Source: an uncultured Candidatus Saccharibacteria bacterium
Lineage (GTDB): Bacteria; Patescibacteriota; Minisyncoccia; UBA6257; GWB1-50-10
Assembly: GCA_964365955.1 (NCBI GenBank)
Contig: CAYISA010000002.1
Location: 23,329-87,328 of the forward strand
DNA: 64,000 nt
Direction of reading: 5' to 3'
The position numbers and the translations under genes are program-made. Under the pieces are notes generated by a model. That model searched no databases and was not told the DNA's origin. It saw only the letters and a list, made by a program, of their open reading frames with translations. This document shows, piece after piece, positions 7,984 to 35,888 of this stretch; the stretch's first letter is position 1; the number at the start of each line of letters is the position of its first letter.

Positions 7984-7998
7984 TTCAAATTTCTCTAG

Positions 7999-8745
7999 TT
8001 ATGCTTCATACAGCGTGTAGCCGGCCTTTTGCCCATCGTCGTAAAACATTTTGACGGTGTCCAAGGAGAGTTCGTGATGGTCATATCCGACTTTCTCCAA
8101 TTTCTTCAAAATGTCGGAAGTGACGGTAACTATTTCACACCCTACTTCATCGGCGTGGTAAATATCCAAAAGCTGTCTCGGACTTGCCCATAACAGTTCG
8201 CACCGAGAAACCTGCGAGGTGATTGCTTTTGCTTCTTTCATGATGGGGGTGGGGTTTACTCCGGTATCGGCGATGCGACCAGCAAAAACGGAAATAATTG
8301 AGGGCGTCTTGGGTGAGAGCGCGCGAACAATGTGCGCTACTTGAGAAACGGTAAGTATTGCGGTTACGTTTAATTTTATCTCTTCTCCCACAAGTTTTTT
8401 TACAAGATCAAATGAAGATTCTTTTTTGGTATTGGTGATCGGTATTTTAACATAAACGTTAGGCGCCCAAGAATTTATGATTCGCGCCTGCCGCTCCATT
8501 TCGTTAAAGTCGTCGGAGAACACCTCAAATGAGATTGGCTTGTCTCTTATAACTCCTAAAATATCTTTTGCAAAAGAAGCATAATCGGTGATGCCCGCCT
8601 TCCTCATTAACGTAGGGTTGGTGGTAAATCCCTTAATATGAGGCTCTTTGGCCAAAGCGACCATTCCTTCTTTTTCAGCTCCATCCGCAAAAATCTTGAT
8701 TTTTAGCTCGTGGGCTTTCTTCGGCATTTTGTAATAATTAAACAA
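7999..8745 (-). CDS. transaldolase / fructose-6-phosphate aldolase family protein
   Basis: GFTTNPTL and ...VKIP... motifs of the MipB/TalC family; could supply sedoheptulose-7-P. Confidence 0.65.
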   Translation of the reverse strand: MFNYYKMPKKAHELKIKIFADGAEKEGMVALAKEPHIKGFTTNPTLMRKAGITDYASFAKDILGVIRDKPISFEVFSDDFNEMERQARIINSWAPNVYVKIPITNTKKESSFDLVKKLVGEEIKLNVTAILTVSQVAHIVRALSPKTPSIISVFAGRIADTGVNPTPIMKEAKAITSQVSRCELLWASPRQLLDIYHADEVGCEIVTVTSDILKKLEKVGYDHHELSLDTVKMFYDDGQKAGYTLYEA

Positions 8746-8763
8746 AAATTAAAAGAAGTCAAC

Positions 8764-9789
8764 TCACCGCTCCCTTGCAAGCCAAATTGGTTTTTTAGTT
8801 TTTGAAGATTCATAAACCGCGGCTATAATCCTATTTGCTTCAAGGCCGTCTTTTGCATCGCCAATAATTTTCCCTTTACCCTGTAGCGCCGATAAAAAAT
8901 TCTTCCATTCTTCTACCCAACTTACGTCTTTCTGAAATTTGAAAATTTTTATTTTCGGTACACCGAATTTTTTAGGTCTTCGACCGAAAACCAATGTTTC
9001 CTCTCCATAACTACCGCCCTTGCCATCAACGGCAAGAAATCCCCTGTCGCCAAAAAGTTCAAAAGAAAATATGTTCTTCCAATTCGTTGTACTCACGTGA
9101 AACGAGGCGGTAACAGTCTTATTTTTCATCAGTACGAAAGTATTATCGTCCAACTTTGTCTTCCAAAATTTTGTTTCTGCAAGACCGTAAACCTCATTAA
9201 AATCGCCGGCAAACCAACGACACAAATCAATGATATGAACGCCTTGATCCAAAAGCTCGCCACCTCCGGAAATATTCTTTTGAAACCGCCATTCTTTCTC
9301 CATTCCCAAGCGACCACCATGGCCATAGCGCGCTCTGATAAAAAGTAGCTTGCCTATCTGACCTTGATCAAAAATTTTCTTCGCCTCTCGAATTGCCGCA
9401 TGAAAACGGTGGTTAAATCCCACTTGAATTAATCTTTTATATTTTTTACCAGCATCAAAAATCTTCTTGGCCTCATCAAAATTCCGGCCAAAAGGTTTTT
9501 CACACAAAAGATGTTTTCCATTTTTGAGCGCAGCCATGGCAATCGGCATCAAAAACTTGTTGGGTGTAGCAATAATGACCACATCAATTTTTTGATCCTT
9601 CACCAAATCCTGCCAGCGACGATATGATTTGCACTTATAATTCTGACTCAGGCTTAAGGCGCGATTCCAGTCAATATCTGCTACAGCCAAAAGACGGGTA
9701 CCACCTACATGTTTTAAGGCCTCGGCACGTTTATTGCCAATTAGTCCAGCGCCTACAATCCCTACATTGATAATCCGTCTTCCTTTCAT
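8764..9789 (-). CDS. Gfo/Idh/MocA family NAD(P)-dependent oxidoreductase
   Basis: N-terminal Rossmann INVGIVGAGLIG...; EKP motif (LLCEKPF). Confidence 0.8.
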   Translation of the reverse strand: MKGRRIINVGIVGAGLIGNKRAEALKHVGGTRLLAVADIDWNRALSLSQNYKCKSYRRWQDLVKDQKIDVVIIATPNKFLMPIAMAALKNGKHLLCEKPFGRNFDEAKKIFDAGKKYKRLIQVGFNHRFHAAIREAKKIFDQGQIGKLLFIRARYGHGGRLGMEKEWRFQKNISGGGELLDQGVHIIDLCRWFAGDFNEVYGLAETKFWKTKLDDNTFVLMKNKTVTASFHVSTTNWKNIFSFELFGDRGFLAVDGKGGSYGEETLVFGRRPKKFGVPKIKIFKFQKDVSWVEEWKNFLSALQGKGKIIGDAKDGLEANRIIAAVYESSKTKKPIWLARER

Positions 9790-9793
9790 AATT

Positions 9794-10621
9794 TTATTTA
9801 ATTCTCCGGAGAGTAAGTTTGTCGCTTTTCATTATCTTTTTTAAATCGCTCTTCCGCCAACCCTGCCAGTCGTCCCAAACGGCGCTGATCAAGCGGCCAC
9901 TAAGTGGTTTGGATTTATCGGAGGCAAGAAAAAGTACAAGTTCCGCAGCTTTTTCAGGGGGCGCACCACCGATTTTCGACCTCTTTTTAGCCGAAGCTAG
10001 CTCTTCCGCGCCAGCTCTTGCTCCGGCACGTAAAACCTCTTTTAGCATTTTTGTATTGACCGCACCCGGCGCAATCGCATTGACCCGGATTCTGTATTTT
10101 TTTAATTCATCAGCTAGAATTTCTGTAAATCTCACAACGCCGGTTTTGGCAACAGCATAGGCGGAAAAATTGGTACGCGAAGAAGTACTGCCGCCACCTG
10201 AAAAATTGATAATGCTTCCTGATCTCCTTTTTATCATCGCCGGCAAAATTAGCTGACAAAGAAATACTGTCCCCAAGAGATTGACTTCCAGATTCTTGCG
10301 CCATTGCCCTAAATCATTTTCAACAAACGAGCCGATGGGTTCCTGAATGCCGGCGGCATTCACAAGTACGTCTATAAAACCATATTTTTTCTGAATGCCA
10401 CGAACCACTTGCGAAGTTTCGTTGAGGTTGGAAATATTAACTGTTTTGAAATCTACTAAACCACCTTCTTTTTTAATCTTGTAAGCCACTATTTTCAATA
10501 ATCTCCGGGAACGACCAAGAATAATTACCTTGGCACCCGCGCGGCAAAAATAATCTGCGATAACCGAACCAATACCCCCGCTTCCACCGGCAATCAAAAC
10601 TACCTTATTTCTAAAATTCAT
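9794..10621 (-). CDS. SDR family oxidoreductase
   Basis: VVLIAGGSGGIG Rossmann motif; YAVAK catalytic motif. Confidence 0.8.
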   Translation of the reverse strand: MNFRNKVVLIAGGSGGIGSVIADYFCRAGAKVIILGRSRRLLKIVAYKIKKEGGLVDFKTVNISNLNETSQVVRGIQKKYGFIDVLVNAAGIQEPIGSFVENDLGQWRKNLEVNLLGTVFLCQLILPAMIKRRSGSIINFSGGGSTSSRTNFSAYAVAKTGVVRFTEILADELKKYRIRVNAIAPGAVNTKMLKEVLRAGARAGAEELASAKKRSKIGGAPPEKAAELVLFLASDKSKPLSGRLISAVWDDWQGWRKSDLKKIMKSDKLTLRRIK

Positions 10622-10622
10622 C

Positions 10623-11609
10623 TTAGAAGTTTGTTAATACCTTTGAGCCCTCAAAATCAAAACGGTATCGCATCTCTCTTAAACCTTCACGTGCCATTGT
10701 TTCGCGGAAATTCTTGTGACCGCCCGGAACGTAAAATATAAAGAATCCTCCGCCGCCGGCGCCGGAGATTTTTCCTCCTAAAGCACCGCTTTCCTTAGCA
10801 AGATCATACAACCGGTCAAATTCCGGATTCGTCATTTTTGAAGATATCTTCTTTTTGTGCTGCCAATGCGCATCAAAAAGCTTTCCCACTTCATCGATAT
10901 TCCCCTCTTCAACCGCCTCAAGAATCTCACACCCGATTTCCTTGATATAATGCATGCTCTCTACAACTTCCTTTTTCTCTTCGCTTACTCCGGAAGATTG
11001 TTCTTGCAAAATTTCATCGGCCTGCCGCGTAACTCCAGTAAAGAAAATTAGTATATTGCGATTCAGTTCATCCGCCACATCCATTGAAACGTTTGCTTTT
11101 CTTAAAGAAACATTTCCATCTTTTTTAATTTCTAAGACTGTGAATCCGCCAAAAGCCGCCATATAAGGATCTTGTTTGCCGATGGGTCGTTTTAAAACTT
11201 CTGCTTCGAGTTTAAAATCTTCTTCGGCTAAAGTTTGAAGAGAAATATACTCTCTTTTTAAAGTGTGGAGGGCGTGGAGAAGCCCCACAGTATAACAACT
11301 TGAGGAACCCAGACCCGTGCCGGCTGGTATATCGGCTAAAGAACTGATTTCTATATTTTTTTCAACGCCGGTCATTCGAAGCGCCTCGCGAACAAGGTCG
11401 TGTTGAATTTGATCCACTCTCTCAACTGTTTCCGATTTTGTGTATTTAAGCCGAATCAAATCGTCGGCTTTCGGTCGGTTAACATCAACAAACATGTATT
11501 TATCAAGGGCGGCTGCAAAAATAAAGCCGCCGTATTTTGAATAGTAGGAAGGCAGGTCGGTTCCTCCGCCGCCCAAAGTAATCCGAAATGGTGTTTGAGT
11601 GATTATCAT
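10623..11609 (-). CDS. hddA: GHMP kinase, probably D-glycero-alpha-D-manno-heptose 7-phosphate kinase (HddA-like)
   Basis: MIITQTPFRITLGGGGTDLPSYY N-terminus and GHMP motif PAGTGLGSSS. Confidence 0.7.
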   Translation of the reverse strand: MIITQTPFRITLGGGGTDLPSYYSKYGGFIFAAALDKYMFVDVNRPKADDLIRLKYTKSETVERVDQIQHDLVREALRMTGVEKNIEISSLADIPAGTGLGSSSCYTVGLLHALHTLKREYISLQTLAEEDFKLEAEVLKRPIGKQDPYMAAFGGFTVLEIKKDGNVSLRKANVSMDVADELNRNILIFFTGVTRQADEILQEQSSGVSEEKKEVVESMHYIKEIGCEILEAVEEGNIDEVGKLFDAHWQHKKKISSKMTNPEFDRLYDLAKESGALGGKISGAGGGGFFIFYVPGGHKNFRETMAREGLREMRYRFDFEGSKVLTNF

Positions 11610-12496: not shown

Positions 12497-13420
12497 CTAT
12501 ATCCTTCCCTTCTCCATCTCCCCTTTAATAAACTCAGCCATTGCGCGCAGTCCTTCTTCAAGATTTGTTTTGGGCTTCCAGCCCAGCGCTACGGCATCCG
12601 AAATATCGGCGAGTGTTTGTGTCGGAACGTCTCCGCTTAGCTGTGGTTTTATGATTGGCTCAATGTCGGATTGTAAAATATTTTTTATTGTATTTAAAAT
12701 ATCTACCACTGAATAAGACTTTCCGCTCCCCAATCTAAACATCCGATTATCTACACGGTCATCGGTAATGCACTGCAAGTGGAAATCATTGATGTCATCT
12801 ACATAAACAAAATCGCGTTTGTTATTTTCCGCTCCTTCATAAATCGTCGGTCGCTCACCCTTTAGTAGTTTTATTATAAAAGCGGACATAACAGGTGGAA
12901 TTAAACGCCGATAATCCTGGCGTGGGCCGTAGACGTTAAAATACCTAACGCCGACCATCGTTACACCAAAAGCCGCGTGGTAACCGTCGGCAATCATTGC
13001 GTCTGTTAATTTACTTATTGCATAGAATCCTTTCAAACGATCGTCGCCTTCTTCAACAGCCGAAGATTGAGCGTAAACAACCTTTCGCACTCCGGCTCTT
13101 TTTGCAGCTTCAAAAACATTCGTAGTTCCAACAACATTAATCTGCATTGTCTCGACGGGATCTTTTTGGCAATCAAGAAGCTGGTTTTTAGCAGCAAGAT
13201 GGAAGACGGCATCAACGCCCTCAAATAATGGATAAATGCTCTGCGAAGAAACATCAACCCTATGAAACTCTACTTCTTTGGGGACTTGATGGGCCGGTCC
13301 ATATGCTAGATTATCAAGGCCCAAAACTTTATAGCCCGCGGCCAGCAATCTATCAGCTAAATTACTGCCGATGAAACCGGCCACGCCCGTAATCAAGATT
13401 TTTCCTTTGCTGACAGCCAT
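12497..13420 (-). CDS. NAD-dependent epimerase/dehydratase (extended SDR)
   Basis: ILITGVAGFIGSNL Rossmann motif; YAISK catalytic motif. Confidence 0.8.
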   Translation of the reverse strand: MAVSKGKILITGVAGFIGSNLADRLLAAGYKVLGLDNLAYGPAHQVPKEVEFHRVDVSSQSIYPLFEGVDAVFHLAAKNQLLDCQKDPVETMQINVVGTTNVFEAAKRAGVRKVVYAQSSAVEEGDDRLKGFYAISKLTDAMIADGYHAAFGVTMVGVRYFNVYGPRQDYRRLIPPVMSAFIIKLLKGERPTIYEGAENNKRDFVYVDDINDFHLQCITDDRVDNRMFRLGSGKSYSVVDILNTIKNILQSDIEPIIKPQLSGDVPTQTLADISDAVALGWKPKTNLEEGLRAMAEFIKGEMEKGRI

Positions 13421-20144: not shown

Positions 20145-21143
20145 CTAAATTTTCCGTGCGTTTCGTATCCAAGCGGCGGTTTTTAATATTCCTTCCTTTA
20201 GCCCGATTTTCGGCGCCCAACCAATGAGATGCTCAATTTTTGATGGATCCATTTCGCGCTGAATGGCGGTATTAAAATCGGTCTTATCGACAATATATTT
20301 TAATTCCTTCCTGACACCAAGTAGTTCCCAAATCAAACGAGCCAGATCAATAATCTTGGTTACATCCTTTGATCCAATGTTAAAATCGCTATTGATCACG
20401 CGAGGATTTTCTTTTAGCGCTTCTTCAATAATCATGGTTGTTGCTTCTACGGCGTCGTCCACGTAAGTAAATGGCCTCGTTGCTTCAACTTCGCCTAAAA
20501 GTTCAAGGGGGTACTGACCGCTAATAATTTTTTTAATGAGCGCTGGGATAACGTGAATATCAGCCAGCGTCGAACCTTTTGAATCCTCGCCAGGACCATA
20601 GACGTTGTGATATCGGATAACGACATATTGCAAACCATATTGTTTTTGGAACGCCGTGCAGAAGTATTCACCGCCGAGTTTTGAAAAACCATAAATATTT
20701 GTTGGTGGCTTTATAAGAGGCAAATCACTTTCCTTATAGGGATAGTGTTCTGCTCCTTGAAAAACCATAGAGCTCGAGGAGTATATGATCGTTTTGACCC
20801 CAGCCTCAACTGCCGTAGGATAAACAACGGAATCAATCGCCATATTATTCGCCATAATTTCAGCCTGATGATCGCGCATGTAACCAATGGGGCCAATGTC
20901 AGCAGCAAGGTGAACAACGAGATGAATTCCTTTGAGTGACTTTTTCGCACAAGATTTTTCCCTTAAGTCACACGTCAGTATTTCCACTGCGCTCGGCAAT
21001 TCAACCATAACTTTTTTATGCTCCTCTGGCGTTGCAATATCAACGACACGAACATCGTGCCCAGCTTCACTTAGTGCTTTTGCTACCCGACTTCCGATGT
21101 AGCCACAGCCGCCCGTCACAAGAATTTTTTTGCCTTGCATCAT
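20145..21143 (-). CDS. NAD-dependent epimerase/dehydratase
   Basis: ILVTGGCGYIGS Rossmann motif; YGFSK catalytic motif. Confidence 0.8.
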   Translation of the reverse strand: MMQGKKILVTGGCGYIGSRVAKALSEAGHDVRVVDIATPEEHKKVMVELPSAVEILTCDLREKSCAKKSLKGIHLVVHLAADIGPIGYMRDHQAEIMANNMAIDSVVYPTAVEAGVKTIIYSSSSMVFQGAEHYPYKESDLPLIKPPTNIYGFSKLGGEYFCTAFQKQYGLQYVVIRYHNVYGPGEDSKGSTLADIHVIPALIKKIISGQYPLELLGEVEATRPFTYVDDAVEATTMIIEEALKENPRVINSDFNIGSKDVTKIIDLARLIWELLGVRKELKYIVDKTDFNTAIQREMDPSKIEHLIGWAPKIGLKEGILKTAAWIRNARKI

Positions 21144-24498: not shown

Positions 24499-25230
24499 TC
24501 AGGATTTTTTTGCTATAACGATAACATTTTGTGTAAAAACTCCTACCCCACTCCCGGCTTCAACTAGACGGTACAAACGAAGGCGAAGCTCAATACAAAA
24601 CCATAAAATAAGCCGAAGGAAAGAGATGGGTCCATGAGCCGTCGGCCGGACTGAAAAGACCTGCACTGCATCAAAGCCATATGCCAAAAGTATCTGTTTT
24701 AAACTTGAGCCAGTAAAACTTGTATCGTGTGTAAAGTCACCATAGCGGAGACGGCCACTCATCGGACTTTCGGCATTCGGAGTTTTTATAATAAGGGTTC
24801 CACCTTTTTTTAATGACTCAAAAATTAATTCCATAATTTCTAAAACTTCAGCTTTTTCAAAGTGACCCAAGACATCCCGTATAAAAATCAGATCAAAAAA
24901 ATTCTTTCGAGTTTTCAAAAAATTGCTCAGATCGTCCTTCTCAATTCCAGAGATACCAATTTTTTTACCCAACTCAATCTGCTCAGAACTCACATCAACC
25001 CCCACAGCATTTTTATAATCCAAGGACCTTAACCAATAAACAAAACCACCGTTGCCACATCCCAGATCAACAATATTCGCATCGGTATTCCCCGTCAAAA
25101 ATCCGGAATAATAATTATTCCAAGCAGTAAACTGGTTTTTAATAATTTCCAAGCTAGTGTCCCCATAAAGATTGTGATTGTGCTGGGAAACGTACTTTGA
25201 ATAAAATTTTTCTTTGTAATTACTCTCCAT
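24499..25230 (-). CDS. class I SAM-dependent methyltransferase
   Basis: IVDLGCGNGGFV motif I. Confidence 0.75.
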   Translation of the reverse strand: MESNYKEKFYSKYVSQHNHNLYGDTSLEIIKNQFTAWNNYYSGFLTGNTDANIVDLGCGNGGFVYWLRSLDYKNAVGVDVSSEQIELGKKIGISGIEKDDLSNFLKTRKNFFDLIFIRDVLGHFEKAEVLEIMELIFESLKKGGTLIIKTPNAESPMSGRLRYGDFTHDTSFTGSSLKQILLAYGFDAVQVFSVRPTAHGPISFLRLILWFCIELRLRLYRLVEAGSGVGVFTQNVIVIAKKS

Positions 25231-25233
25231 GAT

Positions 25234-26400
25234 TTAAGAAAGGGACTGAAGAACTGCTTTTAAAGTACGGACAACATAACTTTTTTCTTCATCGGTTAAA
25301 ATCGGGCCACTGGGAATATAAAATCCATTTAGGCCAAGATTGTTTGCAACCGGGCAGTCCTCTGGCTTCGCCAATCCTTTCTTAATGAAAATGTCTTGCA
25401 TATTGTACGGAATAAAATCTTCTCGAACTTCGATTCCCTGCCTTAATAATTCTTTAAGAACAGCTGACCTCTTCCCATGGGCGCTTCCACGAAGGATTAC
25501 ATTAAACATCCAGTACACATTCTTGGCATACGGTTTTTCTACAGGAAGCTGAAGTTGCTCTACATCCGCAAGTTCTTTTAAATAAAAGGAGGCGAGTTCT
25601 CGTTTTTTTTGAATGATAAAATCAATTTTTTTAAGCTGAGCCAACCCTAGCGCCGCCTGCAAATTCGTAAGCCGATAATTAAAACCAATCTCCTGATGCA
25701 TGAATTTGTTTTCTTTTCCAAACGCAAGCGCCTTTAGCATCCGCGCTCTTTCTGCAAGCTCCTTGTTATTGGTTGTGATCATTCCACCTTCACCAGTCGT
25801 GATTATTTTATTCGCATAAAAACTAAAACAACCAATATCACCCAAGGAACCGACTTTTCTCCCTTTGTATTCTGTGCCATGCGCTTCAGCACAATCTTCA
25901 ATTACATACAGGTTATGTTTTTTTGCAATCGCTAAAATTGGATCCATATCAACCGGGTGCCCGTAAATATGAACAACCATAATCGCCTTAGTTTTTGGCG
26001 TTATCTTTGCCTCAATCAAATTTGGATCAATGTTCCATGTGTCCGGTTCACTATCGATCGGAATGGGCCTTGCTCCTTGGTAATGGACAGCAAAGAAAGT
26101 GGCCATATTCGTAAAGCTCTGCACAAGCACATCATCACCCGCACCGATCTTCAGGGCCGCAAGTGCCAGATGAAGCGCCGTCGTCCCGTTTGATACAGTT
26201 ACTGCATGCTCAACCCCACAATAGCGCGCGAAGCCGGTTTCAAAGTCTGTTATATAGTTTCCGGAAAACCCAGAAAGCTCTCCTTTGTTTAGAGCGTCAT
26301 TTACAAACTTTTTTTCTTCTTCTCCAATAACCGGCTGGGAAACAGGGATTTTCATAAGAATTACAGGTGTAATTATGACGAAGTGGTGCAAAAAATACAA
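25234..26400 (-). CDS. DegT/DnrJ/EryC1/StrS family PLP-dependent sugar aminotransferase (WbpE-like)
   Basis: Characteristic SFxxxK lysine region (SFYANKIITTGEGG) and N-terminal cofactor-binding region. Confidence 0.85.
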   Translation of the reverse strand: MYFLHHFVIITPVILMKIPVSQPVIGEEEKKFVNDALNKGELSGFSGNYITDFETGFARYCGVEHAVTVSNGTTALHLALAALKIGAGDDVLVQSFTNMATFFAVHYQGARPIPIDSEPDTWNIDPNLIEAKITPKTKAIMVVHIYGHPVDMDPILAIAKKHNLYVIEDCAEAHGTEYKGRKVGSLGDIGCFSFYANKIITTGEGGMITTNNKELAERARMLKALAFGKENKFMHQEIGFNYRLTNLQAALGLAQLKKIDFIIQKKRELASFYLKELADVEQLQLPVEKPYAKNVYWMFNVILRGSAHGKRSAVLKELLRQGIEVREDFIPYNMQDIFIKKGLAKPEDCPVANNLGLNGFYIPSGPILTDEEKSYVVRTLKAVLQSLS

Positions 26401-26458: not shown

Positions 26459-27166
26459 TCAATCTCTCGCGAACTCCACCGGATATGGCACGAGACCTTC
26501 CTTGCGCCGCTGTTCCACAATCTTTTCGAGGAACGCTCTAAGTTCGGCCACATACTCCGTAATCATCCACTTCGCCTTCTCAGTCCGCACCGCGAATCGC
26601 GCATTCTCGGGAGAATTAAAATCTCCCCAGTCCAGGCAATCACGGAGAGCGTCCATAACCGTCGGACGACTATTGTAGCGCCCGACTTTCTCGCCGCTCA
26701 AAAGTCGAACGGGATCAAGCACTAGTTGTTCTGAATGAAACTGCGCCGAGCGAATTATGACATCGAGTCGCGTGTTTACAACCCGATCGGCGTCCTTCAA
26801 GGCAATCGTAACAGCATCATCTGACTCTTCGTTCGGTCTGCCATGATTCAAAACCGCTCGAGCAATGATCTGTTTTTCCTCTTCGGAGAGATTCGGTTCT
26901 GTATCAAGCCAGCTCCTTACTAGCACTTCGACATCTGCGGCGGGAACTTCTCCACGCGGCTTGCCTAAGTCTATCGCAATCATGCGATCAGCATTATGAC
27001 AAATACCAGCGACCCAAGCTTGACCAGAAGAATCCGACCAAAACGTTTGAGCAAGTTGTGCCACAGCAAAAGCATGATCGAAATCATGTCCATGGGCCAT
27101 CTTTCGGCTCACGTGTGCTTTTCTCACAATTTTTGTGAGATTCGGAAACACAGTCCATAAATGCAT
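26459..27166 (-). CDS. HD-domain-like phosphohydrolase (hypothetical)
   Basis: HGHDFDH ... CHNADR ... DADR motifs; visibly higher GC than its neighbours. Confidence 0.45.
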   Translation of the reverse strand: MHLWTVFPNLTKIVRKAHVSRKMAHGHDFDHAFAVAQLAQTFWSDSSGQAWVAGICHNADRMIAIDLGKPRGEVPAADVEVLVRSWLDTEPNLSEEEKQIIARAVLNHGRPNEESDDAVTIALKDADRVVNTRLDVIIRSAQFHSEQLVLDPVRLLSGEKVGRYNSRPTVMDALRDCLDWGDFNSPENARFAVRTEKAKWMITEYVAELRAFLEKIVEQRRKEGLVPYPVEFARD

Positions 27167-27303: not shown

Positions 27304-27657
27304 ATGTACATGGCATATTCTAACAATCCCCATCTGCCTCGTGTCCGACGGGAAGCGGTGCAGCTTGTTCGTGCAGGATGGAGCACCGTGAAGGTTGCTC
27401 GACATTTGGGATATTCCCAGAGTGCCGTTGTGAAGTGGGCGCAGCGTGCTCCGGAGGATGGGAGAAAAATCATTCCTACGCTCTCATCCCGCCCTCTTCA
27501 TCATCCGAACGAACTTTCGGATACGGTGGTGTTCCGCATCTTGGAACTTCGGAGAGAACGGAACCAATGCGCGGAGATTCTGCAGTATCGGCTGCAGAGA
27601 GAAGGAATCGCAGTATCTCTCTCTTCGGTAAAACGAACTCTCCGCAGACATCAATAG
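27304..27657 (+). mobile_element. truncated IS481-family transposase N-terminal HTH fragment (no DDE core)
   Basis: GWS..KVAR.LGYS...V.KW..R......SSRP.HHP......ILELRRER....I...L.REGI.VS.SSV.R.LRRH matches the IS481 transposase N-terminus; ORF stops before the integrase core; high-GC patch. Confidence 0.55.
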
Positions 27658-27663
27658 AACCCT

Positions 27664-28743
27664 TCACCTTATCTTGAGCTCGTGCTCCATCATTATGGAC
27701 ACAAGATCGTCAAATTTTATTTTCGGCTCCCAACCAAGTTTGGTTTTAGCTTTTGTATAATCACCCAGGAGATCGTGGACTTCTGATGGACGAAAGAAAT
27801 CCGGATCAATTTCCAATAGTACCGCCCCCGTTTTTTTATCAAACCCCTTTTCATCAATGCCCTTGCCGCGCCACTCTATATCAATTCCCACGTGTTTAAA
27901 GGATTTTTCAACAAATTCACGCACGGAGTGACTTTCTCCTGTTGCAATAACGTAATCATCTGGCTCCGACTGTTGTAGCATAAGCCACATCGCCTCTACA
28001 TATTCGGGAGCGTATCCCCAATCTCTTTTTGCATCTAAATTACCAAGATGTAGTTTTGGATGAAGTCCCTTCTTAATACCCACAACGCCTTTTGCAATTT
28101 TCCGTGTTACAAAATTAATTCCCCGCCTAGGTGATTCATGGTTAAAAAGAATGCCATTTGCTGCAAATATGTTATAAGCTTCGCGATAATTCCTTACTAC
28201 ATTGAATGCAAACACCTTGGCGCATCCATAAGGACTTCTTGGATGAAAAGGGGTTAGCTCATGTTGTGGAGCAGGAGCAGCGCCAAACATCTCTGAACTT
28301 GCCGCTTGGTAAAATTTAATTTTATGCCCCGGATTACGCGCTTCAAACTCTTTAATAAGCTCAAGGAGTCTTAACACACCAAGACCCGTAACATTCGCAG
28401 TATATTCGGGAATATCAAAACTAATTCGCACGTGGGATTGAGCGCCTAAGTTATAAATTTCGTCCGGAGGGAAGTCGAATTTATGGAGCCCATATCTTCC
28501 GTATGCGTCATGCGAACCAAATATAAACCTGGAAAGACTATGCGTATCTGAGAGATCGCCATAATCTCTAAAGAGGACCGCTCCTTTGTTATGTAAGTCT
28601 TTAAGGATATGGTCAATACGCTCCGTATTCGGAGAAGAAGAACGGCGAACAACTCCCATGACTTTATAGCCTTTTTCCAATAATAACTCAGCGAGGTATG
28701 AACCGTCTTGGCCCGTTATGCCCGTAATAAGCGCGCTTTTCAT
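27664..28743 (-). CDS. gmd: GDP-sugar 4,6-dehydratase (Gmd family; possibly GDP-heptose 4,6-dehydratase)
   Basis: [26 protein letters not shown]...VHG; start set at the MKSALITG Met. Confidence 0.85.
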
Positions 28744-28828
28744 GATTAACAAATGATAAGAAAAATAAGGCCGATGGTCAAGTTTATGCGTTGACTGATA
28801 AGGTTTATTTTGCTTACATGTATATGCT

Positions 28829-30061
28829 ATGGCGCATATTACGAAATGCAGATTTTGCAACAAAACGACCCTAGAGCCCTACCTTGACCTAGGTTTTACG
28901 CCTCATGCCGATCGATTCCCAACGTTGGAACAGCTCGAAAAGCCGGAACTATACCACCCCCTAAAAGTAATGATGTGTAAAAACTGCGGACTGCATCAAT
29001 TAAGCTACACAGTAGATCCAAAATTCCTTTACCAAGAGGATTATTTGTACGAATCGTCCATAACAAAAACCGGAGTTAGTCACTACCATAGTTTTGCCGA
29101 GTCGGTCACAAAGAAATTTGATCTTACAAAAAAAGACCTTGTGGTTGATGTGGGCTCAAACGTCGGGGTTCTCCTTAAGGGATTCAAAAACCAGGACGTA
29201 AAAATTCTTGGCGTTGATCCGGCAAAAAACATTGCGGCGATCGCGAATAAGAACGGCATACGGACCATTCCAGATTTTTTCGTTTCGCACGTTGCGCAGA
29301 CGGCGCGGAAAAAATACGGCCCCGCCAAAATCATTGTCGGCACGAATGTTTTTGCCCATATTTTTGACCACCACATTTTTATGAAAGCGGTAAAAATCCT
29401 TCTCGCAAAAGACGGGGTGTTTATCTTTGAATCCCCCCATCTTTCGCACCTCATACAAAACCTCGAATACGACACAATCTACCATCAGCACCTCCTCTAT
29501 CTATCATTAAAACCCGTGGTGCAATTTTTCAAAAGCCATGGAATGGAGGTATTTGATGTGGAAACATACCCCATTCACGGTGGCTCGTTTAGGGTATTTA
29601 TCGGTAACCGAGATGTCCACAAAGTCCAACTATCGGTGGCGCGGATGCTAAAAAGCGAAAAGAAAGGCGGAATTTATTTTATTCCGAAATTGAAAAAATT
29701 CGGAAAAAAAGTTCATCAGCACCGGCAAAAACTTATGAATTTATTGACGGATTTAAAGCGTCGTGGGAAAAAAATCGCCATTGTAAGCACCCCTGCCAAA
29801 GGAATGACCTTGTTAAATTTTTGCCGGATAGGTCCGGAACACGTTGAGTTTGCAACGGAAAAATCAAAATTAAAAATAGGTCGTTTTACTTCGGGAACGC
29901 ACATCCCGATTTTCCCCGATTCCGAATTATTGAAACGGAAACCCGATTATGCTCTGCTTCTGGCCTGGAATTTTGCGCCGGAGATTATGCGGGGACTAAG
30001 CGAGTACAAAAAGAAAGGTGGTAAATTTATCATCCCGATTCCTAAACCAAAAATAGTATAA
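28829..30061 (+). CDS. NDP-sugar C-methyltransferase (TylCIII-like; zinc ribbon + SAM MTase + C-methyltransferase C-terminal domain)
   Basis: CRFCNK...CKNCGLHQ zinc ribbon, [10 protein letters not shown] motif I, C-terminal domain characteristic of sugar C-MTs. Confidence 0.7.
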
Positions 30062-30068
30062 TTGAATT

Positions 30069-30446
30069 ATGCAAGTAGAAAAAAAGCCCATTAACTTCGA
30101 GGATGCGCGCGGCACTATCCGCGATATTCTGATTGGCGTAGATGTTGATGCAGTCACTATTATCACCTGTGCAAAAAATTCCGTCCGGGGAAATCACTTC
30201 CATAAAAAGACGACGCAAAACACTTATGTGGTAAGCGGCAAATTAATTTATGCAACCCAACAAGACGACGGACCGATCGAAACCAAAACTGTTGAAACAG
30301 GAGATATCACCATAGATATTCCAGGATCAAGGCATGCCTTCAAAGCGCTTAAAGATTCGGTTATCCTACAGATGTCAAAAGGCCCCCGCCAGGGGAAGGA
30401 ATACGAATCAGACACTTTTCGTTTAGAAAAACCGATTCTTTCATAA
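30069..30446 (+). CDS. cupin-fold sugar ketoisomerase/epimerase (FdtA/WxcM-like)
   Basis: INFEDARGTIRDI...RGNHFHKK pattern similar to FdtA/WxcM C-terminal domain. Confidence 0.55.
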   Translation: MQVEKKPINFEDARGTIRDILIGVDVDAVTIITCAKNSVRGNHFHKKTTQNTYVVSGKLIYATQQDDGPIETKTVETGDITIDIPGSRHAFKALKDSVILQMSKGPRQGKEYESDTFRLEKPILS

Positions 30447-30497: not shown

Positions 30498-31085
30498 TCA
30501 TTGAAGCATTTCAAGAGTGCTCTTGGTTTGTTCATCATCCGGCCACAGCGAAAGAATTCGCTTTGCGATCACTTTCGCTTTTTCTTTTTGACCGCCGTCT
30601 TTATAAAGTTGGAAAAGCGTATAAAGCGGAGGCGGCAACTTCGGACCGATTTCCAATACTTTTAAATAATAATCTTCGGCTTTCCCGAAATCTTCTTGTT
30701 TCCCAAAACGCCTCCATAAGATGTAGTACATCTGCCCCGTCGTCAAAAGATGCCGCACGTCGTTTTTAAACATATACGGCTCCAGGTATCCCAGAAGCGC
30801 GCGCGATACGTTTTCCGGCGTGTCTTGCTGCGAGATCGCGGACATAATATCGTTCGACAAAAACTTTGCAATCTCTTCGTCCCCCACGGGAGCATAGAAC
30901 TTGAACGACGCATCAAACGTATCCTGGAATTGCTGGAGCGATTGCACGGAGCCAAGAGCGCGAAGCCCCGCAATAAACCGGCGGGAACGCGCAATAGGAA
31001 GGAGTGACCCATAAATAATCGCGACGATCACGATCATCCCTACCATGCTCGAGATAATAATTTTAACGGTTGGAGTCGCGCGCAT
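30498..31085 (-). CDS. membrane-anchored TPR-like protein (hypothetical), overlaps the upstream gene
   Basis: N-terminal TM helix, then helical repeat region; 23-nt overlap with the ligase-family gene. Confidence 0.45.
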   Translation of the reverse strand: MRATPTVKIIISSMVGMIVIVAIIYGSLLPIARSRRFIAGLRALGSVQSLQQFQDTFDASFKFYAPVGDEEIAKFLSNDIMSAISQQDTPENVSRALLGYLEPYMFKNDVRHLLTTGQMYYILWRRFGKQEDFGKAEDYYLKVLEIGPKLPPPLYTLFQLYKDGGQKEKAKVIAKRILSLWPDDEQTKSTLEMLQ

Positions 31086-32493
31086 GTTCGATGATGGTAT
31101 TGGAACTCGACGATTTGAATTCTAAAAGAAACGTGGAAAATGCCAGGAAGAAAAATAAATTGAGGTAGGTGGGAAGTACGTCGAAGAGCACTAATCCTTG
31201 CACAAGATACGCAATCGGGATCGCGGCAATCAAGGCACGCTGAAACGATGATTTTTGGGAAATGAACGAATCCTGTTTTTTGGACGCGATAAAGAAACGC
31301 CAGTAAAAAACGATAAACATTCCCACAAAACTCAAAAGACCCACAATGCCCGTCTCGGCCAAGTAATCGAAAATCAAACTGTGAGCGCGGTCAAACCATG
31401 CCCCGAATCCATCCTTCGGAATAAAATAGCGCGTATCGAAATGGGTGTCGAAAATTTTAATATAGTTCTCCGGTCCCCAACCGAACACGGGGTGCACTTT
31501 AAATCCTTCCCACGCCACATTCCACATAATACGCCGTGTTGCGAATGTCTCCGCGGAAATGGAGACATCGAAAACACGATGACCTGGAATCGCCTGCACA
31601 AAAGGGGTATTTTTAAAATTGATCAAAAGCACCACCACGGCAATAAAGGCGACGACGCCCGTAATCAGCCACTTCCGCCATACTTTGTGACTGTAAGCAA
31701 ATAACAGCGCCGCAAAAACCGCCGACGCCACAAGTCCCATAAATGCTCCGCGCGTACCTGCAAGGAAAAAGAAAGCAAGAAAAATAGCGAGAAGTCCTAA
31801 GAGAATCCATGCGGAAGGTTTCTGTTTAAAATCTTTATATTTTTCTGCAAAAAAGTATAGGACATAATACACCATGAATGCCAAGAATACAGCTACGTAA
31901 GACGAGTTGCCGATGGAGCCTGCGAAACGAAATCCCGGAGTGCTGAATTTATCGCCAATAAAACCGAACATACCGAAATTCGCCAATACACCATATAAAA
32001 TCATCAGTGTTGCGCCCACGAAAAACCACCGGAGCGCTGTGTGCCATTGCTTTTCTTCATGAAATAAGAGCGACGTGAGAATAAAGAAAAACCAAAGATG
32101 AAGAATCTGAAACCCACCTTCACCGCGCTCAAAATTTGACCAAAACGACCACTTGGGATCGATACCGAAAAAAGATGCTAAGAGAAACGCGATCGTGAAA
32201 ACGGTAACCGCGATCGCGATCGGGGATCTGAATAAACTTTTCAACCGCGTCCAGAAAAACTCCGCCTGTTTCCCCCACAAAAGTCCCATCACGGTAAAAA
32301 AGAACGCCAGATCCACGGCGGTGCGGAACCAGACATATTTACCGACAATAAAAGGGAATAGCGTGGAGGTAGTGACAATCGCGACGGTAACGCCGATTGC
32401 CATCAGAAAAAATCGGGCAATTTTGAAAAAGTCGGGCATAACACTAAATAGTCGTTTATCAGTGTACTGTATTCGTGAAGTCCCTGCAACCAA
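31063..32493 (-). CDS. O-antigen ligase family (Wzy_C) polytopic membrane protein; candidate oligosaccharyltransferase or polymerase
   Basis: About 12 predicted TM segments; loop motif FDRAHSLIFDYLAETGIVGL matches the O-antigen ligase H-N-x-x-L...E-x-G signature. Confidence 0.7.
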   Translation of the reverse strand: MVAGTSRIQYTDKRLFSVMPDFFKIARFFLMAIGVTVAIVTTSTLFPFIVGKYVWFRTAVDLAFFFTVMGLLWGKQAEFFWTRLKSLFRSPIAIAVTVFTIAFLLASFFGIDPKWSFWSNFERGEGGFQILHLWFFFILTSLLFHEEKQWHTALRWFFVGATLMILYGVLANFGMFGFIGDKFSTPGFRFAGSIGNSSYVAVFLAFMVYYVLYFFAEKYKDFKQKPSAWILLGLLAIFLAFFFLAGTRGAFMGLVASAVFAALLFAYSHKVWRKWLITGVVAFIAVVVLLINFKNTPFVQAIPGHRVFDVSISAETFATRRIMWNVAWEGFKVHPVFGWGPENYIKIFDTHFDTRYFIPKDGFGAWFDRAHSLIFDYLAETGIVGLLSFVGMFIVFYWRFFIASKKQDSFISQKSSFQRALIAAIPIAYLVQGLVLFDVLPTYLNLFFFLAFSTFLLEFKSSSSNTIIEHARDSNR

Positions 32494-32552
32494 AATTAAA
32501 ACCGCCCCGAAGGGCGGTTTTAATACAGTTTTTTGCTACTGCAAAACCAGAT

Positions 32553-35500
32553 TTAGGTCTTCGCGGTAACCGTTCCGAGTGAAGGCGTACCATCAACATA
32601 CATGTTGCTGGTGGTATCGGACAAGTCAGAGTCAGCATTACCGGAGTATCCAAGATCGGACTCAAGTGCGTAGTAGATGACATTCCCCAACGCGCTCACA
32701 GAAAGCTGGAACGTGTTGTTGTTTGCCGCCGCTGCGCTGGTCTTGATCGTGAGATACCTCCAAGAACCTCCATCGAGCTTCGCTTCTGTAGGAGTAACTA
32801 CAGCCGTATCAAACGGAATCGTGGAAGAAGCGCCGAAGGTACCGGTGTTTGCCGCATACCCACTGCCGCTCGACCATGCCGATGTATCCGACTGACCGCC
32901 ACCCATCGCAGATGCGTAGATCTTAAAGGTTGTGGACGAAGAGGCAGTTCCACCGTTCGCAAACACAAATGTTGATGTCGCGAGGTAGACCGGAGCAGAA
33001 CCGTTATTGGTAACTTTGAAGATACCAACTGTGTTTCCACTACCCGTACCAATATCGACTGCCGTAAGCGGAGACACCGCGGAGATCACAACGTTTTGCG
33101 ATGTGACATACGTAATACCGCTCGCCGTCGGCGTACCGGTAATGGTCGCCGTTGTCGTTGCAGTGGTGTTTCCTTTCACGGCAATATCTGTCGTCGCCGC
33201 AATCGAGAACACATAGTCATTCGCCAAGATCGCAACACCACCGTTTGACACATCCGCTTTTACCGACATCGTCACACCTGTGACCGGCACCGGGGCCGAA
33301 AGCAGGTTATCCGTTGCGGTAAACGTGATCGTACAAACCGTTGCGGTGCAAGCATCAAACTGCGAGGCCTGTGCGACTTGGGTCGAGCCTTCGTACAAAC
33401 GAATGTTTGAAAGCGTCGTTGTCGCCAAAGCGCCCGCGCCTGTTGCGGTGATCTTCAAGGACGTAATCTTCTGCGTCTCAAACTGCGAGGTCATCTTCCA
33501 CGCAAAGTAGACACCATTTGCGGTACCCACGCTCACCACCTGCTTCTGGGAAGGCGATGCGCCACTACCAGAAACCAATGCGAGGTTGAGTTTGCCGGAT
33601 GCGACATGCGTCATCATCTGGCCAGTACCCGCGAACGTGATGTTCGTTCCGTGCGTCAAAGAGTTACCCGTAGAGATACCTGTTGCAACAATGTTTCCCG
33701 AAGAGGAAGCAATGTTGAACGTGCTGGTGGTTGTTCCGGAGAGCGCATCCGCCTTAAGGTGGAGCGTAACCGGAGCCACACGCGTCACAACAATCGGAGT
33801 TGTGAAGTCAAACGTTACGGTTACCGCATTGGTAGCGGTCGATCCGGTTGTCGGAAGCGGAGAAGTGTCATTATCTTTGTAGAGATAAAGATTCCCCACG
33901 TCCCCAACGGTCGGACCCGTATGCGTGACAATGATTTTTGTTACCTTCACATCCTCGCCGCCCGACTGGGCATTGAGCTGGAGGGTAGCATATTCATAGC
34001 CGTTTGTTCCCGCAACAACAGAGTTCGCGACCGGAGTCGAGAGTGTCGTTACTGCGAGTTTCGCGGCCTGAACGCCAACCGTAAGACCGCTCACGGTTCC
34101 CACGGAAGGATCCGTAAGATCATTTGTGATCAAGCGCTTTACCTGAAGAAGGTCAAACGCGTTCACTGTGTAGGTCGCGGTTGAGGCCGCACTGGAATTC
34201 ACAGAACCTTCTACCGAAATCACGGAGTCCTGACCGGAAGTCAGAATCGGATACGAAGAAAGCGTGATGGTCTGAACCGTTCCTGCTGTAGCGAAACCGG
34301 AAGCGGCTGCGCTGTAGACCGTTACGCCGTTTACCTTCACATAAACCGTGCCGGTAAGAGCAGTCGTAACCTGTGTGATCCCAAAACTAATCTGGCGGAG
34401 TTCCATGTTTTCACCCGTCGGCTTCGCATTGAATTTCGCGAGAACCACGTTGGTGGAACCAGGAACCACGGAAGCGCTCGGGGAGTCCGACGCGCGGGTA
34501 AAGGTAACCGAACCCGAGTTGATGGTATGAATGTTGAATCCATTACCAATCGGGAATGATGTGTCATTCGAGCCTACACCCGGAATGACGGATACGCCGG
34601 TTGATGCGCCACGAATATCAATATCGTAGTTGTTGTAAACCACGAACTCAATTTTGCGGCTGGTGCCATCAACAACTTTTGCGCGCACCGCGAAATCTTT
34701 CGTCAATCCCTTGTCAATGAAGTAGGGCGACGTGAGGTTAAAGACAATGTTCTTGCTAGAGGGCTGTGCCGTTGCAAGAACCGTGCCGTCCTGCGCTTCC
34801 AAGGTGATATCTTTAATATCCCTGTCGGAGGCAGTGTTGTACATGTAAAGCGTTAAGCTATGCAAGTAAATTCCCTCGTTGCTTCCAACTTCTTGAATTC
34901 GGAATTTTGTGATTTCCTGAACACTGTTCGGATCCACGTTCAACGACGAGGAACCGGTGGAGGTGAGCACATCAAGCGTCGTAGACGCAAGAGAGGTACC
35001 ACCATTCACAATGTTCATCGCATTACCGTTCAACGGAAATGCTCCGGAAACTGCGGTCGTGTCGGCGCCCACTGCGGAAACCGAGTTGAGGCCGAACGCA
35101 ACCGTACCGTTGTAATTTCCTGTAAGGAGGTTAAAGCGAACCGTGAGGTATTCCGTCGATCCTGCGCCAACCATGACCGGATCCATCGACATCGTGATCA
35201 AAACGGAGTTGTCGGCATTCACCGAGGTTACGACATTTCCATGCCGCATCCCCTTAGAATCCACGACATCCACGCCGTTCAAATTCGAATTTGCGAGAAA
35301 TCCGCTCTTCATGACGGAGAGGGACGAAACTTTCACGTTTTTGGAACCGGCAGTTAACTTCACCTTTAAGGCGGGGTTAAACGCGGTACCACTTCCGAGC
35401 GTGCGAGACGCCGGATTGTCCGATGCCAACTCCACCATCAGATCCGTTCCCACGGGAACCGGAACCGGTCCTGGTACGGGGATCGGAGAAGGAGCAGTCG

Positions 35501-35888
35501 CCATTGCGGCGCGGCTTTTCGGACCAAAGTAGCCAACCGCTGGGGTAATCCCATTCGCGCTCTGCCATGCGGCAAGAGCGGCTTTGGTCATAGGACCAAA
35601 GTAGCCGGTGGGGGCGGAAATTTTAAGGTAACCACCCGAGATCAAGACATTCTGCAGAGCCGTTACGTCAGCGCCTTTCGATCCGAGAGTGAGGTTCACG
35701 GAGAAAGTGTATGACGACGGAGCAGTTGCCTGCACAGCGCCCAATTTTGCTTGAAGCGCTGCGATTTGAGCTAAAATTGCAGCTACATCTGCGGAAGAAA
35801 GCGATTGTGCCGCCGCGATTCCCGAAAGGGACGCGATGGTCGCTACCGCTACTGCCACGGATGCAACTTTTCGTACTAATATACTCAT
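32553..35888 (-). CDS. 1111-aa secreted surface protein (S-layer-like): signal peptide, coiled segment, peptidoglycan-binding domain, Pro-rich linker, ~950 aa Thr/Ser/Gly/Val/Asn-rich beta-type region
   Basis: N-terminus MSILVRKVASVAVAVATIASLSGIAAAQS; PG_binding_1-like GSKGADVTALQNVL...GYFGPMTKAALAAWQSANG; PIPVPGPVPVPV linker; long low-complexity Thr/Ser-rich body. Confidence 0.8.
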   Translation of the reverse strand: MSILVRKVASVAVAVATIASLSGIAAAQSLSSADVAAILAQIAALQAKLGAVQATAPSSYTFSVNLTLGSKGADVTALQNVLISGGYLKISAPTGYFGPMTKAALAAWQSANGITPAVGYFGPKSRAAMATAPSPIPVPGPVPVPVGTDLMVELASDNPASRTLGSGTAFNPALKVKLTAGSKNVKVSSLSVMKSGFLANSNLNGVDVVDSKGMRHGNVVTSVNADNSVLITMSMDPVMVGAGSTEYLTVRFNLLTGNYNGTVAFGLNSVSAVGADTTAVSGAFPLNGNAMNIVNGGTSLASTTLDVLTSTGSSSLNVDPNSVQEITKFRIQEVGSNEGIYLHSLTLYMYNTASDRDIKDITLEAQDGTVLATAQPSSKNIVFNLTSPYFIDKGLTKDFAVRAKVVDGTSRKIEFVVYNNYDIDIRGASTGVSVIPGVGSNDTSFPIGNGFNIHTINSGSVTFTRASDSPSASVVPGSTNVVLAKFNAKPTGENMELRQISFGITQVTTALTGTVYVKVNGVTVYSAAASGFATAGTVQTITLSSYPILTSGQDSVISVEGSVNSSAASTATYTVNAFDLLQVKRLITNDLTDPSVGTVSGLTVGVQAAKLAVTTLSTPVANSVVAGTNGYEYATLQLNAQSGGEDVKVTKIIVTHTGPTVGDVGNLYLYKDNDTSPLPTTGSTATNAVTVTFDFTTPIVVTRVAPVTLHLKADALSGTTTSTFNIASSSGNIVATGISTGNSLTHGTNITFAGTGQMMTHVASGKLNLALVSGSGASPSQKQVVSVGTANGVYFAWKMTSQFETQKITSLKITATGAGALATTTLSNIRLYEGSTQVAQASQFDACTATVCTITFTATDNLLSAPVPVTGVTMSVKADVSNGGVAILANDYVFSIAATTDIAVKGNTTATTTATITGTPTASGITYVTSQNVVISAVSPLTAVDIGTGSGNTVGIFKVTNNGSAPVYLATSTFVFANGGTASSSTTFKIYASAMGGGQSDTSAWSSGSGYAANTGTFGASSTIPFDTAVVTPTEAKLDGGSWRYLTIKTSAAAANNNTFQLSVSALGNVIYYALESDLGYSGNADSDLSDTTSNMYVDGTPSLGTVTAKT

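Follow-up and report, generated by a model that had tools for sequence, protein, structure and literature searches.

In Vibrio cholerae O1, Escherichia coli O157, and Caulobacter crescentus, GDP-perosamine is made by the dehydratase Gmd and the aminotransferase Per/RfbE. To our knowledge, amino sugars that also carry a carbon branch come nearly all from actinomycete antibiotics, along with a few glycolipids of mycobacteria, with dTDP or CDP as the carrier nucleotide. This study concerned a 64,000-nucleotide stretch of contig CAYISA010000002.1 from an uncultured Candidatus Saccharibacteria bacterium (the whole stretch is referred to as the window), in which the gene for a GDP-mannose 4,6-dehydratase (Gmd) lies divergent from the gene for a sugar C-methyltransferase (C-MT), which is followed by the gene for a small cupin. 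Our best explanation, which we hold as a whole with moderate confidence, is that this trio forms the center of a nucleotide-sugar module of six genes within a large surface-glycan cluster of this Patescibacteria bacterium, and that the product of the module is GDP-4-amino-4,6-dideoxy-3-C-methyl-hexose, a C-methylated sugar of the perosamine type akin to sibirosamine and kansosamine, possibly with further methylation.

The predicted module shares with the GDP-perosamine pathway Gmd, an aminotransferase of the DegT family, the GDP scaffold, and a 4-amino-4,6-dideoxy product. It differs in having the C-MT and the cupin act after the dehydration and before the transamination, and in an additional methyltransferase, and no perosamine N-acetyl- or N-formyltransferase was evident in it. 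The route to dTDP-sibirosamine in sibiromycin is said to have been outlined by Li et al. in AEM in 2009 as a series of dehydratase, epimerase, C-MT, aminotransferase, N-methyltransferase, and glycosyltransferase. The lipooligosaccharide cluster of Mycobacterium kansasii, which is associated with N-acyl-kansosamine, lists a cytidylyltransferase, an epimerase/dehydratase, a rhamnose epimerase, and a methyltransferase (PMC4403928). Both systems follow the same enzyme logic and belong to the same predicted product class (4-amino-4,6-dideoxy-3-C-methyl). However, their starting compound is dTDP- or CDP-glucose, their epimerases are of the RmlC type, and they serve actinomycete secondary metabolites or glycolipids, whereas the module in the window would start from GDP-mannose, use a small cupin of the FdtA fold, and serve a primary surface glycan of an uncultivated bacterium of the Candidate Phyla Radiation (CPR).

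Two further systems are built on GDP. A proposed, biochemically untested route to virenose in Coxiella burnetii comprises CBU_0689 (gmd), CBU_0691 (a TylCIII-like C-MT), and CBU_0688 (fcl) (PMC3539893), and was the only published case of gmd with a TylCIII-type C-MT for a cell-surface glycan that we found in the open-access literature. A reading of the same DNA made earlier from the sequence alone (the sequence-only reading) had called a C-MT on a GDP scaffold uncommon, which holds, although the Coxiella proposal means that it is not unprecedented. Virenose lacks an amino group: it is a 6-deoxy-3-C-methyl sugar whose synthesis ends with an Fcl-type epimerase/reductase, whereas the window has no fcl and has an aminotransferase instead. 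The GDP-6-deoxyheptose pathways of Campylobacter jejuni and Yersinia pseudotuberculosis use a DdahA/DmhA/WcbK dehydratase, RmlC-type epimerases, and C4 reductases (PMC10680097). In common with the window they have the GDP scaffold, a cupin that acts beside the 4-keto group after a 4,6-dehydratase, and, within the cluster, a GDP-heptose cassette, which is putative in the window. The window differs in its Gmd-clade dehydratase, its other type of cupin, the absence of a dedicated C4 reductase, and a module that is unlinked to heptose genes elsewhere.

The dehydratase, C-methyltransferase, and cupin

The sequence-only reading had described a 4,6-dehydratase gene divergent from a C-MT gene with a cupin gene 7 nt beyond it, and all three genes were confirmed at the coordinates it had given. 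The C-MT protein sequence recurred on 7 independent contigs from Hainich groundwater, the longest of 113 kb, and was assigned to a Patescibacteria metagenome-assembled genome; the trio is therefore no assembly artefact.

The dehydratase gene (27664-28743, minus strand) encodes 359 aa from an ATG at 28743. The protein scored 507.6 bits against the gmd model TIGR01472, above the curated equivalog cutoff of 415, and 443 bits (1e-132) against the Pfam family PF16363 (GDP_Man_Dehyd). When compared with all PDB sequences, it matched nine solved GMD groups, including those of human, Naegleria, Aquifex, E. coli, and Arabidopsis, at 382-413 bits, and the C. jejuni GDP-heptose dehydratase 7US5 at 98.7 bits. 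The latter represents the C. jejuni heptose dehydratases well, as these are mutually 89-98% identical (PMC10680097). The cofactor and catalytic motifs of short-chain dehydrogenases/reductases (SDRs), namely GxxGxxG, Ser/Thr-x-Glu, and the Yxxx type, as listed in PMC3539893, were intact in the translation. By these matches the dehydratase is a true Gmd, predicted to convert GDP-mannose to GDP-4-keto-6-deoxymannose, and the suggestion that it resembles DdahA/DmhA was not borne out. A 14-aa insertion at about residues 74-88 (window about 28460-28505) was shared only with the Gmds of the related Patescibacteria loci L007/L011; it was shorter in locus L008 and absent in 13 other Gmds.

The open reading frame initially listed for the dehydratase (27664-28863, minus strand) opens at a TTG and overlaps the C-MT gene. 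Its first 40 codons are almost certainly an artefact of the rule that admits TTG, and the true start is most likely the ATG at 28743 (MKSALITG...). Public gene calls of 359 aa agree with it, and a promoter-like site lies at 28781-28753. That site, a sigma-70-like TTGACC-17-TATCAT on the minus strand, falls in the 85-bp divergent intergenic region (28744-28828) and is suggestive of a promoter, with the count of such sites in the region not above the shuffled expectation.

The C-MT (28829-30061, plus strand; 410 aa) belongs to the TylCIII/TcaB9/MtmC family of NDP-hexose C-methyltransferases and contains three domains, each scoring above its cutoff: an N-terminal zinc domain (Methyltransf_13, PF08421, 67 bits), an S-adenosylmethionine (SAM) methyltransferase domain (Methyltransf_23, PF13489, 48 bits), and a C-terminal domain (Methyltransf_14, PF08484, 171 bits). 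The C-terminal domain, whose absence on an HMM search the sequence-only reading had named as grounds for refutation, was thus present. The best solved relatives were MtmC (293 bits), which is the D-mycarose 3-C-methyltransferase, KijD1 (250 bits), and TcaB9 (233 bits), all of which are 3-C-methyltransferases. Because the closest characterized relatives methylate C3, the C-MT would be expected to methylate C3 of an NDP-4-keto-6-deoxy sugar, with C5 as the alternative site. Four cysteines of the zinc site (C7, C10, C50, and C53) were present, as were the equivalents of TcaB9 His181, Tyr222, and His225, residues that are mutated in TcaB9 variant entries in PDB. In the motif YDTIYHQH (residues 214-221; window about 29468-29491), glutamine stands where TcaB9 has Glu224, the substitution that was engineered into the TcaB9 variant PDB 4e2y. 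The glutamate is kept in 66 of 72 related C-MTs (56 read IYHEH), as it is in MtmC, and the glutamine was common only to the closest Patescibacteria relatives and one Nanoarchaeota locus among the 72.

The cupin (30069-30446, plus strand; 125 aa), which starts 7 nt past the C-MT stop codon, was assigned to the NDP-4-keto-sugar isomerase/epimerase fold by its structure model. By sequence it gave only a weak match to Cupin_2 (9e-5), below the Pfam cutoffs. A Pfam search gave no match of the window cupin to PF05523 (FdtA), with weak matches in a few homologues, and no match to the RmlC family (PF00908, TIGR01221) was found. Assignment by sequence as a WbuC-type or RmlC-type cupin was rejected, as neither family model matched. 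The AF2 model, built from an alignment of 42 homologues, had a pLDDT of 96, and its best PDB fold matches by Foldseek were the CapF cupin domain, QdtA, FdtA, and FdtD (entries 2pa7, 4o9e, and 4zu4 among them; TM 0.74-0.78, rmsd 2.1-2.6 Å, identity 19-24%), followed by RmlC and StrM. The RmlC-type heptose epimerases of Campylobacter ranked lower, with rmsd values of 7-9 Å.

The window cupin shares with FdtA, QdtA, FdtD, and the C-terminal cupin domain of CapF the small cupin fold, an N-terminal DxRG, and the active-site motif RGxHxHKKxxQ. An hhalign comparison with an FdtA-family protein gave 89% probability, with VRGNHFHKKTTQ aligned with VRGKHAHRKLEQ and DARG with DERG. Residues H43, H45, Q50, and H89 were among those invariant in the homologue alignment; H43 and H45 correspond to the histidine pair H49/H51 of FdtA, which is mutated in FdtA structures (H49N and H51N entries), and a profile alignment placed all four residues on the four Mn ligands of oxalate decarboxylase, so that a metal site is possible. 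In addition to its low identity and its failure to match PF05523, the window cupin differs from FdtA, QdtA, and FdtD in this third invariant histidine and the glutamine at metal-ligand positions, and its family is paired with or fused to a C-MT, a pairing not known for FdtA or QdtA. The label "FdtA-like" was thus correct for the fold, the DxRG motif, and the HxH pair, whereas membership in the FdtA family was not established.

The cassette in other genomes and its partner genes

The cupin belongs to an uncharacterized family with 672 cluster representatives at E <= 1e-10 in an exhaustive HMM search, and when one genome per GTDB species was scanned with a pattern, at least 333 of these genomes contained relatives; no homologue was found in the plasmid collection searched. 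Synteny was counted in the 80 best cupin loci, which span Patescibacteria, Saccharibacteria, Verrucomicrobiota, Elusimicrobia, SAR86, Nitrobacter, Bradyrhizobium, Rhizobium, Nanoarchaeota, and others. A C-MT gene lay directly upstream of the cupin gene on the same strand in 75 of the 78 loci with room for one, and a DegT aminotransferase gene lay directly downstream in 54 of 73. A SAM methyltransferase of about 257 aa, matching the sugar N-methyltransferases DesVI, CalS10, CcbJ, and TylM1, was encoded in 38 of the 80 loci, mostly right after the aminotransferase, and a GT1 glycosyltransferase was often the next gene. Our search of open-access papers found no account of this C-MT/cupin/aminotransferase cassette or of its product, and for 4-amino-4,6-dideoxy-3-C-methyl sugars in bacterial glycans the only finds in that literature were the Coxiella virenose proposal and a text that mentions kansosamine.

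Single polypeptides with the C-MT followed by the cupin (529-564 aa) were found as three independent cluster representatives (P0289, P0343, and P0388) in public data, where sequencing frameshifts are possible. As Rosetta-stone evidence, these fusions indicated a common substrate for the C-MT and the cupin. Further fusions, in P0375, P0348, P0355, and P0397, placed the cupin before a class I methyltransferase or after an FkbM-type methyltransferase. A variant of the cassette was also observed, in L031, L053, L069, L087, and L089, in which an SDR gene stands directly upstream of the C-MT gene (motif IYLEH or VYLEH) and cupin gene and the aminotransferase is absent; this variant presumably makes a non-amino 6-deoxy C-methyl sugar.

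Genes for Gmd, a methyltransferase, an HD-fold protein, and a DegT aminotransferase accompanied the C-MT and cupin genes in three other Patescibacteria lineages (L007/L011, L008, and L012). A Gmd scoring at least 250 bits was encoded within 10 kb of the cassette in 17 of the 80 loci, including those of Patescibacteria, SAR86, Nitrobacter, and Curvibacter; it immediately adjoined the cassette in, e.g., L039, L052, and L070, and was adjacent to it without an Fcl-like SDR in at least 8 loci. Two SAR86 loci had an Fcl-like gene (437-455 bits) after Gmd, and the Gmd there may serve fucose instead. In two cultured strains, Rhizobium phaseoli JHI366 (L058, 8466-18033) and R. redzepovicii 18T (L076), the cassette of C-MT, cupin, DegT, N-methyltransferase-like, and GT1 genes was followed by genes for a glucose-1-phosphate cytidylyltransferase (412 bits) and a CDP-glucose 4,6-dehydratase (439 bits), and both loci also carried a second C-MT paralogue and an RmlC-type epimerase. 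The Rhizobium cassette would be a CDP-linked version and a possible experimental system in cultured strains. With Gmd in the window and a CDP-glucose dehydratase in Rhizobium, the cassette is tied to scaffolds that differ from lineage to lineage.

Two partner genes in the window, which the sequence-only reading had overlooked, lie on the minus strand beyond gmd. The first encodes a pyridoxal-phosphate (PLP)-dependent sugar aminotransferase of the DegT family (25234-26355; PF01041, 5e-120). Its top PDB matches were the Caulobacter GDP-perosamine synthases 3bn1, 3dr4, and 3dr7 (304-307 bits), the next were a match at 263 bits and QdtB at 236 bits, and the aminotransferases directly after the cupin in other genomes matched it at 400-530 tblastn bits, so that it is nearer to the cassette DegTs than to any characterized enzyme. 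We predict an aminotransferase of the GDP-perosamine-synthase type whose natural substrate would be a C-methylated keto sugar.

The second encodes a class I SAM methyltransferase (24499-25230; 243 aa; Methyltransf_23, 3e-20), a candidate sugar N- or O-methyltransferase with weak matches to the N-methyltransferases PMT and BamL/BpumL. It is kept together with gmd and DegT in L007/L011, L008, and L012. Its identification as the DesVI/TylM1-like N-methyltransferase of the canonical cassette was rejected (BLASTP E = 0.014). Because the conserved aminotransferase and methyltransferase belong with the C-MT/cupin pair, the predicted product is an amino sugar rather than the deoxy sugar that had been proposed before these two genes were taken into account.

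Proposed pathway and alternative readings

No orthologue of fcl or rmd was found in the window, where the best Fcl-like score was 113 bits against a cutoff of 500; an SDR at 20145-21143 was of a generic epimerase type and not Fcl or Rmd. Gmd was the only confident 4,6-dehydratase in the window. Since there is no Fcl or Rmd to use the product of Gmd, and since the aminotransferase resembles GDP-perosamine synthases, the parsimonious choice of scaffold is GDP. The sequence-only reading had offered a branched-chain or 6-deoxyheptose module, and had held that a dehydratase grouping strictly with Gmd beside an fcl or rmd gene would speak against it. By score, the dehydratase did group with Gmd, and neither fcl nor rmd was found; the branched sugar on GDP stands, with a complete C-MT, and the heptose does not.

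In the proposed pathway, Gmd would first dehydrate GDP-mannose to GDP-4-keto-6-deoxymannose. The C-MT would then form an enolate at C3 by means of the 4-keto group and add a methyl group from SAM. In the third and least certain step, the cupin, as the obligate partner of the C-MT, would re-set the stereochemistry beside the 4-keto group, most simply by C5 epimerization. The perosamine-synthase-like PLP aminotransferase would turn the 4-keto group into a 4-amino group, after which a further methylation by the SAM methyltransferase may follow, and the cluster's glycosyltransferases would install the sugar. The choice of C5 for the cupin follows from its place after the C-MT in gene order and in the fusions, as a methylated C3 has no proton and neither 3,4-ketoisomerization nor 3-epimerization would then be possible. 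An epimerase-like cupin as the partner of the first C-MT also fits the Rhizobium loci, in which the second C-MT is paired with an RmlC-type epimerase. The cupin step, the methylated carbon, and all of the stereochemistry are what we infer rather than observe.

Several observations weigh against this pathway. The aminotransferase gene in the window is not beside the cupin gene, being separated from it by gmd and a transposase fragment, and the methyltransferase is not the canonical DesVI-like one, which makes N-methylation here a guess. The cupin is structurally closest to 3,4-ketoisomerases rather than to 5-epimerases, and its four invariant residues coincide with the metal ligands of oxalate decarboxylase; on either count its chemistry may differ from that proposed. 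The glutamine in place of Glu224 might lower or alter the activity of the C-MT. Sequence does not reveal which nucleotide the C-MT, cupin, and aminotransferase are specific for, and in Rhizobium the cassettes are found together with CDP-glucose genes. Finally, no genes for GDP-mannose supply (manB or manC) were found in the window, save for an HddC/ManC-like nucleotidyltransferase gene in a putative heptose cassette.

A bolder form of the proposal, which we advance tentatively and regard as rather unlikely in full, is that the C-MT and the cupin constitute a dedicated two-enzyme unit, sometimes fused, in which an FdtA-fold cupin with an invariant His3-Gln site of the metal type would carry out chemistry undescribed for sugar cupins on the tertiary 3-C-methyl-4-keto intermediate. 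This chemistry could be a metal-assisted C5 epimerization, or it could be an alpha-ketol rearrangement in which the methyl group shifts to give a 4-C-methyl-3-keto sugar. The surface glycans of many bacteria, cultivated as well as uncultivated, would then contain a class of C-branched, N-methylated amino sugars that the glycan literature does not record.

It is unlikely, but worth weighing, that the genes make two products from the same GDP-4-keto-6-deoxymannose, with Gmd and the aminotransferase yielding GDP-perosamine or an N-modified form of it, and the C-MT, the cupin, and a 4-ketoreductase yielding a non-amino 6-deoxy-3-C-methyl-hexose of the evalose or virenose type. The separation of the aminotransferase from the C-MT/cupin pair by gmd and an insertion sequence (IS) fragment is consistent with such a split, and the window aminotransferase is nonetheless orthologous to those standing directly after the cupin in the majority of loci. 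The SDR variant of the cassette does without an aminotransferase, and the Coxiella proposal likewise consists of gmd, a C-MT, and a reductase; however, the window C-MT goes with the aminotransferase-linked type and not with the lower-scoring IYLEH type, most of whose loci have no aminotransferase. Two uncharacterized SDRs in the cluster (12497-13420 and 20145-21143) could be considered for the ketoreduction, but neither is an orthologue of Rmd or Fcl and neither adjoins the trio.

An improbable reading is that the cupin acts first as a 3,4-ketoisomerase, the C-MT methylates beside the new 3-keto group, and the aminotransferase aminates C3 to give a 3-amino-3,6-dideoxy C-methyl sugar. In structure the cupin comes closest to QdtA, FdtA, and FdtD, and its HxH pair aligns with that of an FdtA-family protein, but the FdtA family PF05523 did not match the window cupin. 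The C3 aminotransferase QdtB is also a strong match to the window aminotransferase, which is nevertheless nearer to the C4-specific perosamine synthase (306 vs 236 bits). The methyltransferase of the cassette resembles DesVI and TylM1, which act on 3-amino sugars. Against this order of events, all characterized homologues of the C-MT use a 4-keto substrate, and the C-MT precedes the cupin both in nearly all loci and in the fusions.

That the trio makes a 6-deoxyheptose-type product from GDP-heptose, as the sequence-only reading had suggested, is very improbable: a putative heptose cassette does lie in the same cluster and holds the only sugar-1-phosphate nucleotidyltransferase seen in the window, but it is 16 kb away, beyond many glycosyltransferase and methyltransferase genes, no such cassette was found near the closest Gmd relatives (L007/L011 and L008) or in any of the 80 cupin loci, the dehydratase passes the Gmd equivalog model and scores 412 bits to GMDs against 98.7 to the only solved GDP-heptose dehydratase, and the cupin is not of the RmlC type of the Campylobacter heptose epimerases.

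The surrounding glycan cluster and significance

The module, as preferred here, lies in a glycan cluster that occupies positions 1-32 kb of the window and is rich in glycosyltransferases, methyltransferases, and nucleotide-sugar enzymes. The GC content was 0.37-0.47 in the cluster (1-32000) and about 0.45-0.52 over 32000-64000, a step at approximately 32 kb that would fit a glycan island that is variable or exchanged horizontally. The putative heptose-nucleotide cassette (6091-11609, minus strand) comprises an HddC/ManC-like NTP-transferase, a GmhB-like HAD phosphatase, a GmhA-like SIS protein, a transaldolase, a Gfo/Idh/MocA oxidoreductase, an SDR, and an HddA-like GHMP kinase. The transaldolase scored 320 bits against TIGR02134, whereas all other members fell far below curated cutoffs, so the product is uncertain; most simply, the heptose would be a second, independent sugar of the same glycan.

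Between gmd and the partner genes described above are two further genes. An HD-superfamily-fold protein (26459-27166, minus strand; 235 aa; AF2 model pLDDT 92) had no sequence match in Pfam, NCBIfam, or PDB, and its model resembled the HD hydrolases 2pjq, 3djb, 2pq7, and YpgQ, with invariant histidine and aspartate residues. Its family comprises 36 clusters, of which the few with a source name are largely from CPR/Patescibacteria; homologues were found in L007, L008, L012, L016, L017, and L025, and the gene sits within the gmd/DegT/methyltransferase operon of several Patescibacteria. On the 113-kb contig (L001, 7631-8259) the HD-fold gene was called in two pieces (174 and 35 aa) and adjoins a small protein of 182 aa, while in L002 (7631-8338) it is intact and adjoins a small protein of 195 aa, which points to population variants or assembly differences.

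The N-terminal helix-turn-helix (HTH) fragment of an IS481/IS630-type transposase (27304-27657, plus strand; 117 aa) lies between gmd and the rest of the minus-strand operon. It matched NF033577 transpos_IS481 (61 bits) over profile positions 2-105 of 284, as well as HTH_23 and HTH_32, and was absent from the equivalent position in L007 and L008. A role for it as a conserved regulator of the module was rejected, as it had no similarity to the small open reading frame at the equivalent place in L008. The fragment may be left over from an insertion by which the module was rearranged, or it may be an HTH protein that has become domesticated.

On its other side, the cupin gene is adjoined by genes at 30498-35888 (minus strand), with equivalents at 8395-14009 in L007 and 9351-13307 in L008. 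These encode a small protein, TPR-like in its L007 homologue; a Wzy_C/O-antigen-ligase-like membrane protein; and, in the window and L007, a 1111-aa surface protein rich in Ala, Thr, Ser, and Val with a PG_binding_1 domain at its N-terminus. L008 has two Wzy_C proteins instead. Bacteria of this kind have no outer membrane. Wzy_C and PG_binding_1 neighbors in such a bacterium suggest that the glycan is anchored on a wall polymer or on the 1111-aa surface protein.

Every enzyme family in the module is familiar, and the cassette is both widespread, being indicated in at least 333 species of many phyla, and uncharacterized, with a cupin that may hide new chemistry. The module lends itself to testing, as its five enzymes are small proteins of predicted solubility, GDP-mannose is commercially available, and two cultured Rhizobium strains carry the cassette. 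If confirmed, the pathway would bring a new nucleotide sugar into the GDP family, give an uncharacterized family of cupins a function, and provide a handle on the surface glycans of CPR bacteria.

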